Of a stretch of DNA of 64,000 bases, positions 58,872 through 62,763 are shown piece after piece. Source of the DNA: an uncultured Alphaproteobacteria bacterium (GTDB lineage Bacteria; Pseudomonadota; Alphaproteobacteria; HIMB59; GCA-002718135); the NCBI GenBank assembly GCA_902621725.1, contig CACNND010000001.1:83726-147725 (forward strand). Direction: 5' to 3'. A program made the translations under genes and the position numbers. Positions within the stretch are counted from its first letter, which is position 1; the number at the start of each line of letters is the position of its first letter. The notes below the pieces were generated by a model. The model saw nothing but the letters and a program-made list of their open reading frames with translations. It made no database searches and was not told the origin of the DNA.

Positions 58872-59063
58872 TTATAGAATAATCTCAAAAACTCTTTCCT
58901 TATCTTTTTCTAAAACCTTTTTTATTTTAAACTTTGCAGTTTTTGTAAGTTTGATTCCTTTATTTGTCACAAATGATTTCATTTTAATTACTTCTTTTTC
59001 AGGCATTTTTCTTTCATATTTCAATATATGTTTCTCTCCACTGATAATAAATGCAGTTTTCAT
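58872..59063 (-). CDS. Small basic hypothetical protein (63 aa)
   Basis: Lys-rich ORF preceded by a good SD (AAGGAGA, 6 nt before the ATG). No family recognised. It competes with the antisense ORF 58834..59094. Confidence 0.4.
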   Translation of the reverse strand: MKTAFIISGEKHILKYERKMPEKEVIKMKSFVTNKGIKLTKTAKFKIKKVLEKDKERVFEIIL

Positions 59064-59124: not shown

Positions 59125-60411
59125 TTAATCTCTTATTGAATAAGCTACAACTCCTACCTCAGCCTTATCAGTTCCAAGTTTTTCAGCTTCTTCACTAATT
59201 CTTAATCCCATAATATTTTTAATTAAATATATTACAATATATGAGAAAACAAAAACAAAGATACATACTGATGCAACACCTAATAACTGAATTGCGTATG
59301 ATGCATCAGGATTAGTTAGAGGGACAACTAATGTTCCCCAAATTCCAGCAAACATATGTACAGGTATTGCACCAACAACATCGTCTAGTTTTAATGAATT
59401 TAAGAAGTTAGTTCCATAATACATTATAATTCCTCCAACTACTCCAATTCCAATTGCAAGCAATGGACTAGGCATTAATGGCTCAGCTGTTATTGAAACT
59501 AGACCAGCAAGAGCTCCATTTAGCATCATGACAATATCGGTTTTACCACCAATCAATCTTGTTATTGCTGCACCAGCCATACATCCACCACAAGCTGCAA
59601 GTTGAGTGTTCATAAAAATTTTAGACATTGCTGTTGCATCTTCATAAGAACCTAATGCAAGTTGTGAGCCACCATTAAAACCATACCAACCCATCCATAA
59701 AATAAATGTACCTAGAGTAACTAATGGAATTGATGATGGAGCAAATGGAGCCATATTAGCTGGTTCACCACTTGCGCTAAATCTCCCAAGTCTTGGACCT
59801 AAAAGAATTACACCAGCCAAGGCGGCTGAACCACCACAAGCATGAACTAATGTTGAACCTGCAAAATCCGCAAATCCAAGGGCGTCTAACCATCCTCCAC
59901 CCCATTCCCAACCCATTTGAATTGGATAAATCACTCCTCCAAGAACTGCTGCAAAAGTAAAGAAAGGCCAAATTTTTATTCGCTCTGCGACCGCACCCGA
60001 TACAATTGAAACAGTAGCACAAACAAATAAAGCTTGAAAAAACCAGTCGGAAGCATCTGAGTAACCTGTTTCCATTGATGTATTGTCAGTCCATATGGAT
60101 GGTATACCAATATAACCTCCTTCAGGGACAGAATATCCAAGATTATATCCTATTAAATAGAAAACAATTGAAACTATTGCGAACTTTCCAATATTTTTAG
60201 CAGCAATAGTTGATACACTTCTGGTTGTAACAAGACCTGATTCTAAAAATAGAAAACCTGCAGCCATCCACATGACTAAAAATCCACATACTAGAAAAGA
60301 AAATGTATTAAATATATATGCTACTTCTGCGTCAACCTCTGCCCTCACAGATGAACTTAGCAACAAAATAAATGAGAGTATTGTAAAAAGACTAAAAAAT
60401 TTTTTATACAT
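59125..60411 (-). CDS. amt: Ammonium transporter (Amt family), copy 1
   Basis: Signal peptide, MWMAAGF..LESG, SIVSGAVAERIK, DFAGSTLVH, 428 aa. Confidence 0.95.
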   Translation of the reverse strand: MYKKFFSLFTILSFILLLSSSVRAEVDAEVAYIFNTFSFLVCGFLVMWMAAGFLFLESGLVTTRSVSTIAAKNIGKFAIVSIVFYLIGYNLGYSVPEGGYIGIPSIWTDNTSMETGYSDASDWFFQALFVCATVSIVSGAVAERIKIWPFFTFAAVLGGVIYPIQMGWEWGGGWLDALGFADFAGSTLVHACGGSAALAGVILLGPRLGRFSASGEPANMAPFAPSSIPLVTLGTFILWMGWYGFNGGSQLALGSYEDATAMSKIFMNTQLAACGGCMAGAAITRLIGGKTDIVMMLNGALAGLVSITAEPLMPSPLLAIGIGVVGGIIMYYGTNFLNSLKLDDVVGAIPVHMFAGIWGTLVVPLTNPDASYAIQLLGVASVCIFVFVFSYIVIYLIKNIMGLRISEEAEKLGTDKAEVGVVAYSIRD

Positions 60412-60501
60412 TATTAAACTCCATATAAAATTATAAACACATAACTACCCTTTAGTTATGCATTAAATCATGCGTAGCTATGGAAATTAATTACTAAGAT
60501 C

Positions 60502-60552
60502 CGCGTTCCTTCGGGTATACCTACTTCCGATTTGCGAACTGCAAATTGAACG
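60502..60552 (-). promoter_or_regulatory. Glutamine riboswitch aptamer (glnA RNA motif), gene-proximal, amt-1 leader
   Basis: Minus strand: CGUUCAAUUUGCAGUUCGCAAAUCGGAAGUAGGUAUACCCGAAGGAACGCG. It has the CGUUC/GAACG closing helix, an internal hairpin, and the conserved GGAAGUAG and GAAGGAACGC strings. Confidence 0.8.
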
Positions 60553-60568
60553 ATTAATAACTTTGCAT

Positions 60569-60619
60569 GCGTTCCTTCGACTATCGTCTACTTCCGTCAC
60601 TCTAATTGAGTGATGAACG
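60569..60619 (-). promoter_or_regulatory. Glutamine riboswitch aptamer (glnA RNA motif), distal, amt-1 leader
   Basis: Minus strand: CGUUCAUCACUCAAUUAGAGUGACGGAAGUAGACGAUAGUCGAAGGAACGC. Same architecture, 16 nt upstream of the proximal aptamer. Confidence 0.8.
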
Positions 60620-60688
60620 TGAATTGAGTTATAGCTATAATTTGAAAACTATCAAGAAATAGTATTAGATTTAGTTAATAAAATCTGA

Positions 60689-61114
60689 TTAATTTTCTAA
60701 ACTCATCTTACTAAAAAATGAACCTTCTTTTCTTAACCATGTATTAATCATATCGAGAAAATTATTGCTTAAATAATAATTTTTAATTCGTTTGTCTGAC
60801 TTACTTTGCTCTTTAATAAAAATATTTTTTTCTAAAGCTTCGTTTAAAATAGATTGAATAGATGATCTAGATCCAATTGACTTAGGTATATTTGCGCAAA
60901 TTGTTTCAAATGAAATTCCGTTCAATTTATTATTTTCATATATTTCAAGAGAGATAACATGGTGTAAAATTGATTTAAATAAAAATTTAGAGACGTAATC
61001 TTCTGAAAAGAAGCTAGAATATATGTTTCTTTTTTTCTCTTTAATTATTTCTGCTTCAGTCATTAAATATCTCAATAATATTTTGCTATTTTGGGAGAGC
61101 AAATGCTCTCCCAT
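60689..61114 (-). CDS. Small winged-helix (MarR-like) putative transcription regulator
   Basis: ISFETICANIPKSIGSRSSIQSILNEALEKNIFIKEQSKSDKRIKNYYLS reads as an HTH recognition helix plus a beta-wing with the D(K/R)R typical of MarR-type wHTH proteins. An alternative start at 61063 (MTEAEII...) would avoid the hairpin at 61093-61112. Confidence 0.55.
   Translation of the reverse strand: MGEHLLSQNSKILLRYLMTEAEIIKEKKRNIYSSFFSEDYVSKFLFKSILHHVISLEIYENNKLNGISFETICANIPKSIGSRSSIQSILNEALEKNIFIKEQSKSDKRIKNYYLSNNFLDMINTWLRKEGSFFSKMSLEN
61093..61112 (-). other. GC-rich 8-bp hairpin between amt-2 and the wHTH gene
   Basis: GGGAGAGC (61093-61100) pairs with GCTCTCCC (61105-61112) around a 4-nt loop. There is no clear U-tract on the minus strand. 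It overlaps the ATG at 61114-61112. Confidence 0.45.
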
Positions 61115-61162: not shown

Positions 61163-62449
61163 TTAGTCTCTGATGCTGTAAGCCATTACACCTACTTCAG
61201 ATTTATCAGTACCAAGTTTTTCAGCTTCTTCACTAATTCTAATACCAAAGAGCATTTTCATGATGTACCAAATAATAAATGATACAACAAAAACGAAAAC
61301 GTTAATTGCCACAATTCCGTAAAGTTGTGCACCAAAACTTGCTGCTGTGTTTGAAATTGGAACTACTAATGTTCCAAAAATTCCAGCAAAACCATGTACT
61401 GGAATTGCTCCAACAACATCATCGATTTTAAGTGATATTAAAAGTCTTGTTCCATAAAAAACGATTAATCCACCTATTGCACCAATAATTACTGCTAGGA
61501 AAGGAGAAGGAGCTAATGGTTCTGCAGTTATTGCTACAAGACCACCTAATGCCCCATTAAGCATCATTACAACATCTGTTTTACCCGTTACTAGTCTTGA
61601 AATAACAGCACAAGCCATTACACCTGCACCAGCTGCCAGGTTAGTATTAATATATATTGTTGCTACTGCTGTTACATCATCAAATGTACCCATAGCTAAT
61701 TGTGATCCGCCATTAAATCCGAACCATCCAAGCCACAGGATAAATACACCTAAAGTTGCAAGAGGAATTGATGAATTTGCAAAAGGCTCCATTGGAGCTG
61801 CTTCACCACTATCAGTAAAACGTCCTAATCTTGGACCTAACAAAATTGCACCAGCAAGTGCTGCTGCCGCTCCTGCACTATGTACCAGGGTTGAGCCAGC
61901 AAAATCTGAGAAACCTGCTTCTGCTAGGTATCCTCCACCCCATTGCCAACCCATTTCGATTGGATAAATGAAACCTGTTAACAAAGCACAAAAAATAAAA
62001 AATGGCCAAATTTTGATTCTTTCAGCTAATGTTCCAGATACGATTGAGCAAGTTGTTGCACAAAATACCATCTGAAAGAACCAGTCAGAACCATCTGAAT
62101 AACCTGTATCAAGAGCACTACCATCACTCCAAGGAAGCGGAGATCCGATAAAGCCACCTGCAGGAATGCCATATGCCATGTTATATCCAACTAACCAGAA
62201 CATTAAACCAGCTATAGAATATAAGCCTATATTTTTTGCAGCTATTGTTGCTACACTTTTAGACGTTACAAGTCCTGATTCAAGCATTGCAAATCCTGCT
62301 GCCATCCACATGACTAAGAACCCAGATACAAGAAATAGGAATGTATTTAAAATGTATTGCACTTCACCATCTACTTCGGCTCTTGCGTATGAACTAAAGA
62401 GCATAAAGACGGCAATAATGCTAATGAAATATATAGATTTTTTTAACAT
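61163..62449 (-). CDS. amt: Ammonium transporter (Amt family), copy 2
   Basis: Colinear with copy 1, and 428 aa if started at 62449. By eye about two-thirds of residues are identical. The ATG at 62449 has a GGAGGA SD 5 nt upstream; the track start at 62479 adds 10 aa. Confidence 0.95.
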   Translation of the reverse strand: MLKKSIYFISIIAVFMLFSSYARAEVDGEVQYILNTFLFLVSGFLVMWMAAGFAMLESGLVTSKSVATIAAKNIGLYSIAGLMFWLVGYNMAYGIPAGGFIGSPLPWSDGSALDTGYSDGSDWFFQMVFCATTCSIVSGTLAERIKIWPFFIFCALLTGFIYPIEMGWQWGGGYLAEAGFSDFAGSTLVHSAGAAAALAGAILLGPRLGRFTDSGEAAPMEPFANSSIPLATLGVFILWLGWFGFNGGSQLAMGTFDDVTAVATIYINTNLAAGAGVMACAVISRLVTGKTDVVMMLNGALGGLVAITAEPLAPSPFLAVIIGAIGGLIVFYGTRLLISLKIDDVVGAIPVHGFAGIFGTLVVPISNTAASFGAQLYGIVAINVFVFVVSFIIWYIMKMLFGIRISEEAEKLGTDKSEVGVMAYSIRD

Positions 62450-62540
62450 TAATCCTCCATTATAAATTTCACAGTACATGGCTCACATTGAGTCATGCGT
62501 TACTTTTCATGCTTAGCTATGGAAATTAATTACTAAGATC

Positions 62541-62591
62541 CGCGTTCCTTCGGTTTAACCTACTTCCGATTTGCCTAAGGCAAATTGAACG
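62541..62591 (-). promoter_or_regulatory. Glutamine riboswitch aptamer (glnA RNA motif), gene-proximal, amt-2 leader
   Basis: Minus strand: CGUUCAAUUUGCCUUAGGCAAAUCGGAAGUAGGUUAAACCGAAGGAACGCG. The hairpin differs from the amt-1 copy but stays paired. Confidence 0.8.
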
Positions 62592-62607
62592 ATTTATAAC
62601 TTTGCAT

Positions 62608-62658
62608 GCGTTCCTTCGACATTCGTCTACTTCCGTCACCCTAAAAGAGTGATGAACG
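62608..62658 (-). promoter_or_regulatory. Glutamine riboswitch aptamer (glnA RNA motif), distal, amt-2 leader
   Basis: Minus strand: CGUUCAUCACUCUUUUAGGGUGACGGAAGUAGACGAAUGUCGAAGGAACGC. Confidence 0.8.
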
Positions 62659-62763
62659 TATTAGATGAAATAGTTTATTATTAAATTTTAGTAAGAATAT
62701 TTAAGAGAATATTGGTATGCAATAATTGCATATATTAAAAAAACTACTAAATCTGCCAAAATA

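Follow-up and report, generated by a model that had tools for sequence, protein, structure and literature searches.

The ammonium transporter gene amt-2, located in a 64,000-nt stretch of an uncultured alphaproteobacterium of the HIMB59 lineage (assembly GCA_902621725.1, contig CACNND010000001.1, positions 83,726 to 147,725; hereafter the window), is preceded by a 5' leader whose positions 62660-62539 (minus strand), judged from the sequence, are virtually certain to represent the sensor part of a tandem glutamine riboswitch. Together with a conserved expression platform of ~95 nt, the sensor would form a glutamine-OFF translational switch, a mechanism to which a probability of roughly 0.6 is assigned. 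Class, tandem layout and the link to amt were already published in 2010-2011, and the case in the window is one of a known class, a known arrangement and a known kind of gene; as given, the amt-2 leader is another instance of a published class and a matter of routine annotation. The added value is modest: a taxonomic assignment, evidence for orthologous and selected leaders, and a testable model of the expression platform.

Two matches to the Rfam family RF01739 (glutamine riboswitch, glnA RNA) were obtained by cmscan on the minus strand upstream of amt-2, at 62660-62605 (60.8 bits, E 5.9e-11) and at 62593-62539 (60.0 bits, E 9.3e-11), and two further ones form the pair of the paralogous amt-1, at 60621-60566 (61.5 bits) and 60554-60500 (54.7 bits). 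All four span the full model (1-53; gathering score 35 bits) and are the only matches in a scan of the whole window against Rfam 15. The core pattern GGAAGTAG-N6-12-GAAGGAACG likewise occurs four times in the window versus 0.00 occurrences expected by chance (none in shuffles). The conserved core (CGUUCA, CGGAAGUAG and GAAGGAACGC) is present in both amt-2 aptamers; the invariance of the core segments among retrieved relatives is partly due to construction of the search pattern. The glutamine-II riboswitch (Downstream-peptide motif, RF01704) has a related core and the same ligand, but the amt-2 aptamers are not members of this family (17.3 and 15.3 bits versus a gathering score of 33). Thus, the second tandem aptamer pair proposed in a first-pass annotation of this DNA, which gave no family name here, is confirmed by two full-model matches. 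It shows the tandem arrangement of the Ames and Breaker type, with 17 nt between the P1 helices (62608-62592, CAUGCAAAGUUAUAAAU) and a single open reading frame (ORF) downstream, and is located on the strand of the Amt gene, at a distance of 93 nt from its start codon. The spacing is indeed equal in both leaders, but the previously quoted 16 nt reflects a choice of boundaries (17 nt from P1 to P1, 11 nt between the ends of the Rfam models). The coordinates of all elements are compiled in Table 1.

Ames and Breaker are said to have described glutamine binding by this RNA class, as well as its tandem form, in 2011 (RNA Biol 8:82). The glnA RNAs, some of them in tandem, were found upstream of genes for ammonium transporters, glutamine synthetase and PII (Weinberg et al. 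2010, PMC2864571), and two or three glutamine aptamers are often arranged in tandem (Ruff et al. 2016, PMC5066625). For the marine glnA-associated copies, both the effect of glutamine and the taxonomic origin were stated to be unknown (Klahn et al. 2018, PMC6212724), and the accessible literature describes the expression platform and the purpose of the tandem arrangement as unknown (PMC5066625, PMC6212724). No description was found of conservation running about 95 nt beyond the aptamers. The aptamers themselves (55 nt each) are no different from the known form of RF01739, sharing the core (CGUUCA...CGGAAGUAG...GAAGGAACGC), the three-stem layout, the marine habitat and the associated genes; what is added here is the description of the ~95 nt that follow them.

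The amt-2 leader (62659-62508) and the amt-1 leader (60620-60469) are identical at 138 of 152 positions (90.8 %), while the Amt-1 and Amt-2 proteins share 273 of 406 residues (67 %) in a gapless alignment. Both values agree with the first-pass annotation, which had reported near-identity of the leaders over ~150 nt and about two-thirds amino-acid identity of the coding regions. At the DNA level, the coding regions are 67.0 % identical (third codon positions 46.9 %), the 100 nt upstream of the aptamers 53 %, and the stretch between the conserved downstream block described below and the ATG 62 %. The near-identity also spans about 50 nt outside the aptamers, a feature left unexplained by the earlier annotation.

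Twelve of the 14 differences between the two leaders reside within the aptamers, and none affects P1 or the conserved core. Eight are located in hairpin loops (62646, 62645, 62622, 62621, 62578, 62576, 62557 and 62556); the others are 62640 in distal P2 (U.G in amt-2 versus U-A in amt-1), 62579 and 62575 (a loop-closing C-G of proximal P2 that is absent in amt-1), and 62554, where the U-A pair of proximal P3 in amt-2 is U.C in amt-1 (GGUUAAACC versus GGUAUACCC). With 8 of the 12 aptamer differences in 15 loop nucleotides out of 99, loops are clearly enriched (hypergeometric p = 1.4e-5), and 11 of the 12 fall in loops or loop-closing pairs (p = 1e-7). Outside the aptamers, one difference is found in the linker (62595) and one in the downstream block (62513). 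The GGUAUACCC form of proximal P3 is retained by the amt-1 orthologues and is therefore a stable property of this paralogue rather than decay. Three groups of differences had been read correctly before, i.e., proximal P2 (AUUUGC-AGUUC-GCAAAU in amt-1, AUUUGCC-UUA-GGCAAAU in amt-2), the A-U to G-U change in the distal 3' arm (62640) and the distal P3 loop (GAUA in amt-1, GAAU in amt-2), whereas the distal P2 loop, proximal P3, 62595 and 62513 had been omitted. The accompanying statement that the differences fall in loops or preserve pairing does not hold for the omitted 62554, which removes a pair in amt-1.

For comparison with relatives, one genome per species was scanned for two aptamer cores 30-60 nt apart, yielding at least 119 stretches. 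The tandem layout occurs in at least 119 genome loci, mostly of SAR11 and also of SAR116, HIMB59 and Gammaproteobacteria, by which tandem glutamine riboswitches hitherto labelled "marine metagenome" are assigned to SAR11, SAR116 and HIMB59 genomes. Most of the loci listed stem from single-cell genomes labelled uncultured Alphaproteobacteria or Pelagibacteraceae, with Amt proteins 96-99.8 % identical to those of the window, on account of which the window is assigned to SAR11 (Pelagibacterales). Covariation was assessed in 39 non-redundant homologous leaders, for which structures were written by hand and pairs counted; an RNAalifold consensus of 121 unique leaders was uninformative, since the identical P1 strands of the two aptamers were swapped. 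Standard pairs occupy 94.5 % of the pair cells, compared to 86.7 ± 0.4 % in shuffles and 24-36 % with slid partners. Double (compensatory) changes were found for 22 pairs, mostly in P2 and P3 of both aptamers (distal P2, 6 of 6 counted pairs; proximal P2, 6 of 7; each P3, 2 of 3). P1 never varies and is thus uninformative, in part because of the way in which the loci were retrieved. The motif GAAGGAACG, invariant elsewhere, is replaced by AAAGGAACG or CAAGGAACG in the proximal aptamer of some lineages (L267:4831-4938, L273:1334-1441).

In 23 loci with Amt proteins more than 93 % identical to those of the window (22 retrieved plus the window itself), a tandem pair is present at both amt genes, about 2040 nt apart; this locus of amt, small ORF and amt with its two tandem leaders also recurs in a clade with 83 % identical Amt. 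The mean number of differences is 11.3 among amt2 leaders and 10.0 among amt1 leaders; when amt2 is compared with amt1, it is 20.7 inside a genome and 22.3 across genomes. Grouping is by orthology; therefore, the duplication is old and the similarity of the leaders has been held by selection. Recent duplication or gene conversion, instead of selection on RNA structure, as the cause of the near-identity is largely refuted by this grouping and is hardly tenable: the window's own two leaders differ at 23 alignment columns, which is about the average of the set, their differences avoid the core and P1, the same linker and block recur in other orders and upstream of other genes, and flanking leader sequence is merely 53-62 % identical. 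In favour of such an origin, gene conversion itself appears to be real. The two leaders of one locus (L046, 543-756 and 2581-2792) differ at 7 sites versus the usual about 21, and in two others (L091, L050) the distal P2 hairpins of the genome's two leaders are identical; hence, patchy gene conversion between paralogous leaders apparently occurs in some SAR11 genomes. Furthermore, a metagenome contig (L270) from a clade with 83 % identical Amt is a one-amt deletion variant of the locus, sharing the flanks of L267-L269 but harbouring a single amt, with the second amt and the small ORF between them gone; this arrangement is consistent with a deletion caused by recombination, either between the duplicated leaders or between the genes. 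Taken together, the earlier reading of a selected RNA structure as opposed to a recent neutral duplication is supported by covariation and by the orthologous leaders; helix-breaking substitutions at a neutral rate, looked for in the relatives, are not what these display.

Conservation continues for about 95 nt past the aptamers, as a unit with them. In addition to the linker between the aptamers, it includes a trailer and block of 36 nt (CGGAUCUUAGUAAUUAAUUUCCAUAGCUAAGCAUGA) and a hairpin (H) upstream of the ribosome-binding site, for which double changes were observed in 6 of 9 pairs among the 39 leaders. The same linker and block are present in all alphaproteobacterial tandem leaders retrieved (SAR11, SAR116, HIMB59), where linker, block and hairpin H precede genes for Amt, type I glutamine synthetase (476 aa, PF00120) or a circularly permuted ATP-grasp protein (468 aa, PF14403). 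Aptamer stems and loops vary freely in the same set. Gammaproteobacterial leaders and 27 phage-like contigs possess other linkers and platforms; therefore, conservation of linker and block is not forced by the aptamers. Within the window, the 19-nt core of the block occurs just twice, and an Rfam E-value scan of the leaders revealed no additional family over linker, block or hairpin. Interpretation of the block as a degenerate third aptamer was rejected, as it is devoid of a GGAAGUAG or GAAGGAACG core, and so was a AACGCAUG repeat near hairpin H as trace of a third aptamer, which is not conserved beyond one clade. The loop of hairpin H (often AAGG, AUGG or GAGG) was also dismissed as a decoy for the anti-Shine-Dalgarno (anti-SD) sequence, its polarity being wrong for UUUCC and the amt-2 loop being AAUGU.

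The linker and the block could pair with each other, forming a clamp of helix A (62608-62604 with 62512-62508) and helix B (62601-62596 with 62520-62515). The clamp is present in both the minimum free energy and the centroid folds of the amt-2 leader. In all of 20 distinct linker/block classes helix A is paired, and 19 of them preserve the four inner pairs of helix B; the internal loop differs between classes both in its sequence and in its length (1-3 nt per side). Substitutions comprise A-U to G.U (one, in helix A), U.G to U-A and, in L275, a single A-U to U-A at 62601:62515. Accounting for an otherwise invariant helix with thin formal covariation, the comparative evidence for the clamp is suggestive. 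The linker of L267 is only 13 nt long, yet exactly the clamp-forming bases are retained. A metagenome scan for linker variants (GAAGGAACGCBTGC...CGTTCA) returned 120 stretches, 4 of which are true tandem riboswitches and the remainder chance matches, and disclosed no compensatory change.

Alternatively, linker and block might represent a protein-binding site, e.g., for the MarR-like protein encoded between the two amt genes (see below). Conservation at the sequence level with little covariation, a palindromic GCAUGC in the linker together with a 5/6 copy (GCAUGA) in the block, and the synteny of a conserved 124-aa putative winged-helix protein with the amt genes would agree with this explanation. 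It is nevertheless very improbable, considering that linker and block also precede glutamine synthetase, ATP-grasp and the single amt of SAR116-type and related leaders (L001, L271-L274), in whose retrieved flanks no homologue of the 124-aa protein is encoded, that proteins of the MarR type bind DNA, and that the observed variation keeps the complementarity of linker and block while the internal loop varies.

The clamp would set the pyrimidine tract AUUUCCAU beside the second aptamer. This tract could pair with either of two partners, i.e., junction J2/3 of the aptamers (GGAAGU at 62567-62562 and 62634-62629) or the ribosome-binding AUGGAGG (62460-62454). At low glutamine, the disordered junction GG of CGGAAGUAG would pair with AUUUCC, leaving AUGGAGG free and allowing Amt to be made. 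At high glutamine, the GG would be drawn into the ligand pocket and the released AUUUCCAU would pair with AUGGAGG, shutting off translation; in several lineages this pairing could extend through the start codon. Since each aptamer would offer a GGAAGU decoy, both would have to be occupied for full repression, affording a sharper response without cooperative binding. Hairpin H would then act as a constant structural spacer bringing the two partners together.

Several observations are consistent with this glutamine-OFF switch. The decoy pair GGAAG:UUUCC is present in the centroid fold, stacked on the clamp. According to PMC11477058 (citing Ren et al. 2015), G22 and G23 of J2/3 have no ordered conformation until ligand is present, when they are recruited to P1; this behaviour fits the decoy model, because G22/G23 correspond to the GG of CGGAAGUAG. 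The pairing UUUCCAU:AUGGAGG between anti-SD and Shine-Dalgarno (SD) sequence is realized in 91 % of cells, compared to 37-47 % in slid controls, and duplexes between trailer and SD amount to -7 to -12 kcal/mol in most Amt leaders, often reaching the start codon. Cognate trailer/SD duplexes (-8.71 kcal/mol) are slightly stronger than non-cognate combinations (-8.10 kcal/mol), which lends weak support to extended anti-SD pairing (p = 0.04 at first, then permutation p = 0.02). Masking of the aptamers lowers the predicted SD accessibility in amt-2-type leaders from 0.43 to 0.21. OFF logic suits the platform, because amt and glutamine synthetase are both induced by nitrogen limitation, and Klahn et al. 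(2018, PMC6212724) likewise consider that negative control can reasonably be expected of marine glnA leaders. Considered separately, the OFF direction is likely, while for translational control via the AUUUCCAU tract the odds are about even.

A number of findings weigh against the OFF switch. The clamp shows a single double change (L275), and the sister L278 has A.A at the same pair. The anti-SD:SD helix displays solely one-sided changes and zero double compensatory ones. Anti-SD complementarity is weak in leaders of glutamine synthetase genes (-3.3 kcal/mol) and in SAR116 leaders of the L001 type (-4.9 kcal/mol), and ATP-grasp leaders are entirely devoid of AUGGAG. The leader as a whole folds no better than shuffled sequence (z = -0.8). 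The sole glutamine riboswitch tested in vivo, that of gifB in Synechocystis, is an ON switch (PMC6212724). Finally, when both P1 helices are enforced, the clamp forms and the SD accessibility of amt-2 rises from 0.43 to 0.79, a calculation restricted to nested structures, which cannot represent the clamp together with the anti-SD:SD pairing (this would be an H-type pseudoknot).

The last two points also underlie the opposite interpretation of a glutamine-ON switch, in which bound P1 helices stack on and favour the clamp, and clamp plus a trailer hairpin (GGA with UCC) lock the anti-SD and leave the SD open. With both P1 enforced, clamp probability reaches 0.8-1.0 in most Amt leaders, pairing of trailer and SD collapses, and SD accessibility increases in both leaders of the window (0.43 to 0.79 and 0.37 to 0.68) as well as in most modelled Amt leaders; an alternative constraint scheme, however, gives the opposite result, and the nested model cannot evaluate clamp and anti-SD:SD pseudoknot jointly. 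Coaxial stacking is plausible, the clamp strand directly following the 3' strand of distal P1 (GAACG|CAUGC), and the characterised cyanobacterial glutamine riboswitch is ON (PMC6212724). Moreover, one SAR11 Amt was found only in nitrogen-replete cells, leading to the speculation of glutamine-activated translation (Smith et al. 2013, PMC3870248); this paralogue, however, is situated in a different genomic context, and the hupA-linked amt of L280 is not preceded by a glutamine aptamer. Since the same platform stands before glutamine synthetase, where induction by the product is physiologically implausible, an ON switch is considered unlikely. The hupA-linked paralogue of L280, which shares the context of amtB (SAR11_0818) in strain HTCC1062, has a 136-nt leader with a CUCCU-N7-AGGAG hairpin over the ribosome-binding site.

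Control could also be exerted on transcription elongation, with hairpin H acting as a weak intrinsic terminator or as entry point for Rho or RNase, dependent on the state of the block. Apart from the aptamers, no structure is as well supported as hairpin H (double changes in 6 of 9 pairs), a U-rich stretch follows it in the amt-1 leader (UGUUUAUAAUUUUAU), and the ATP-grasp leaders retain block and hairpin H with no AUGGAG nearby. On the other hand, there is no U-tract after hairpin H in amt-2 (ACUGUGAAAUUUAU) and most other leaders, a terminator scan detected no minus-strand intrinsic terminator in either leader, the hairpin is poor in G-C pairs, and no lineage-conserved alternative partner was found for its arms. 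Control of elongation is thus decidedly improbable.

Returning to the OFF switch, one may tentatively envisage, at somewhat less than even odds, a single module of ~215 nt, composed of a helix of linker and trailer enclosing the second aptamer and adjoining P1 of the first, a toggling pyrimidine tract and a covarying spacer hairpin. If true, this module would supply the expression platform reported as unidentified, the tandem layout would be explained by two decoys allowing a sharper response without cooperative binding, and the cyanobacterial ON logic would appear inverted to the OFF logic needed for amt and glnA in SAR11, which lacks PII. The gifB (IF17) riboswitch of Synechocystis shares the aptamer class, the post-transcriptional mode and the association with a nitrogen-assimilation gene (PMC6212724), but possesses a single aptamer before the gene of a glutamine synthetase inhibitor and is ON, whereas amt-2 has two aptamers before an uptake gene and presumably the opposite logic. 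The tandem glycine riboswitch (partly described in PMC5066625) resembles the amt-2 leader in combining two like aptamers with one platform and a linker helix that ties the domains together; it differs in fold and ligand and in that its linker has the 5' leader as pairing partner, with a kink-turn as the result, whereas the amt-2 linker would pair with the 3' trailer across a variable internal loop of 1-3 nt. The phage-like tandem riboswitches (27 contigs from IMG/VR) likewise comprise two RF01739-type aptamers, 11-20 nt apart, before one ORF. Unlike amt-2, they have a different linker and no GCAUGC linker, AUAGCUAAGCAUGA block or hairpin H, and their platform is very short, with the aptamer tail (CAUCU/CACCU) pairing with AGAUG/GGGUG over the ribosome-binding site about 20 nt downstream. 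We know of no inter-aptamer tertiary contacts in glutamine aptamers.

SAR11 bacteria, the ocean's most abundant heterotrophs, are devoid of PII and NtrBC, and RNA control of their amt genes has been suspected (Smith et al. 2013, PMC3870248). Because these regulators are absent and the glutamine sensor is located before both Amt paralogues and before glutamine synthetase, an RNA-based sensor is a plausible main route of nitrogen control in SAR11. The comparative data yield a concrete model, amenable to mutation, of the expression platform and of what the tandem is for, and the two paralogous leaders, whose orthologues are available from many single-cell genomes, lend themselves naturally to separating selection from gene conversion in regulatory RNA.

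Table 1. Features of the amt-2 and amt-1 leaders and of the adjoining genes in the window
Feature	Position	Strand	Basis or remark
amt-2, ammonium transporter (controlled gene)	61163..62449	-	PF00909, E 1.3e-97; TIGR03644, 574 bits (cut-off 514)
Ribosome-binding region AUGGAGGAUUA and start AUG (62449-62447)	62447..62460	-	GGAGG 4 nt before ATG
Hairpin H, CAUGACUCA-AUG-UGAGCCAUG	62477..62497	-	Between block and ribosome-binding site; double changes
Conserved trailer and block CGGAUCUUAGUAAUUAAUUUCCAUAGCUAAGCAUGA, 36 nt	62507..62542	-	amt-1 leader identical but for 1 nt
Clamp, 3' strand (AUAGCU..GCAUG)	62520-62508	-	
Pyrimidine tract AUUUCCAU	62526-62519	-	Complementary to aptamer J2/3 GGAAGU and to AUGGAGG
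Proximal (3') glutamine aptamer	62539..62593	-	RF01739, 60.0 bits, full model; double changes in P2 in relatives
Proximal P1	62591-62587 with 62547-62543	-	
Proximal P2	62585-62579 with 62575-62569	-	Loop UUA
Proximal P3	62560-62558 with 62554-62552	-	
Linker, 17 nt (CAUGC-AA-AGUUAU-AAAU)	62592..62608	-	Proposed 5' strand of clamp; minimum free energy and centroid folds
Distal (5') glutamine aptamer	62605..62660	-	RF01739, 60.8 bits, full model; P2 and P3 covary in relatives
Distal P1	62658-62654 with 62613-62609	-	
Distal P2	62652-62647 with 62641-62636	-	Loop 62646-62642
Distal P3	62627-62625 with 62620-62618	-	Loop GAAU
Possible promoter (CTTACT, 17 nt, TATTTC)	62667..62695	-	Sequence reading; CTTAC(A/T)A and TA-rich hexamers kept in relatives
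amt-1, ammonium transporter	59125-60411	-	PF00909, E about 1e-97; passes TIGR03644 cut-off
amt-1 leader	60409..60621	-	Two aptamers, same linker and block, hairpin 60460-60440
amt-1 counterpart of hairpin H, CAUAACUA-AAGGG-UAGUUAUG	60460-60440	-	
amt-1 SD (GGAG) and ATG	60422-60419 (SD), 60411 (ATG)	-	

Both Amt paralogues comprise 428 aa, with the start codon kept in relatives, and score above the cut-off of TIGR03644 ("probable ammonium transporter, marine subtype"). In a crude scan, an SD-like motif at most 18 nt from the first ATG was found for 7 of the 54 window ORFs of at least 150 aa. Since such motifs are rare among the window ORFs, GGAGG of amt-2 and GGAG of amt-1 are unusual for this genome. 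From the candidate promoter at 62667-62695, where a consensus promoter scan gave no call, the transcript might begin with the first base of the distal aptamer (about 62660-62658); this placement is weakly founded.

The ATP-grasp loci (L006, L036, L041, L059, L063, L200 and L202; PF14403/PF04174) carry the same tandem aptamers, linker, block and hairpin, with the start codon about 126 nt downstream and CGUGC in the linker, resulting in a G.U pair in the clamp. Unlike Amt and glutamine synthetase, ATP-grasp is not the product of a nitrogen-assimilation gene of known function. In gammaproteobacterial metagenome-assembled genomes (L013, L015, L029, L040, L089, L107 and L109), tandem glutamine aptamers stand before a gene for a glutamine synthetase-like protein of 326-336 aa (PF00120/PF03951), and each aptamer is followed by CG(A)CCGUUA and a hairpin of its own, constituting a separate type of platform. 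Only two phage examples were reported earlier (McCown et al. 2017, PMC5473149). In the 27 viral contigs (L120-L146, IMG/VR), the downstream ORFs are small and the hairpin between aptamer tail and ribosome-binding site covaries (CAUCU...AGAUG, CACCU...GGGUG, CACUC...GAGUG).

The gene order GFO/IDH/MocA oxidoreductase, amt, small ORF, amt, 63-aa ORF, DUF179 and DsbD is shared with the clade of 83 % identical Amt. The small ORF between the two amt genes (60689-61063, minus strand; 124 aa) is listed with an extension to 61114, its conserved start being M18. It is found at the same position in SAR11 (73-98 % identity) and, at 46-56 % identity, follows amt in HIMB59 and in further SAR11 clades. There is no Pfam match for this protein, and all 412 database relatives are labelled "hypothetical"; a weak NCBIfam match covers the winged-helix part of MsvR (E 0.004). 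Its AlphaFold2 model is of low confidence (pLDDT 62), with best PDB matches solely to regulators of the MarR family (E 0.008-0.1, TM about 0.27). Possibly, the ORF encodes a small regulator that binds DNA and is linked to amt in SAR11, which has no PII. The 63-aa ORF (58872-59063, minus strand), without a Pfam match, lies directly downstream of amt-1 and is a called gene at the same place in the 83 % identity clade. Located 50 nt past the stop codon of amt-2 is a hairpin of 9 bp, rich in G+C (GGGAGAGC-AUUU-GCUCUCCC, minus strand, 61092-61113). It overlaps the small ORF, in its long version, at the first codons, is followed by no minus-strand U-tract and probably forms the 3' end or a stabiliser of the amt-2 transcript.

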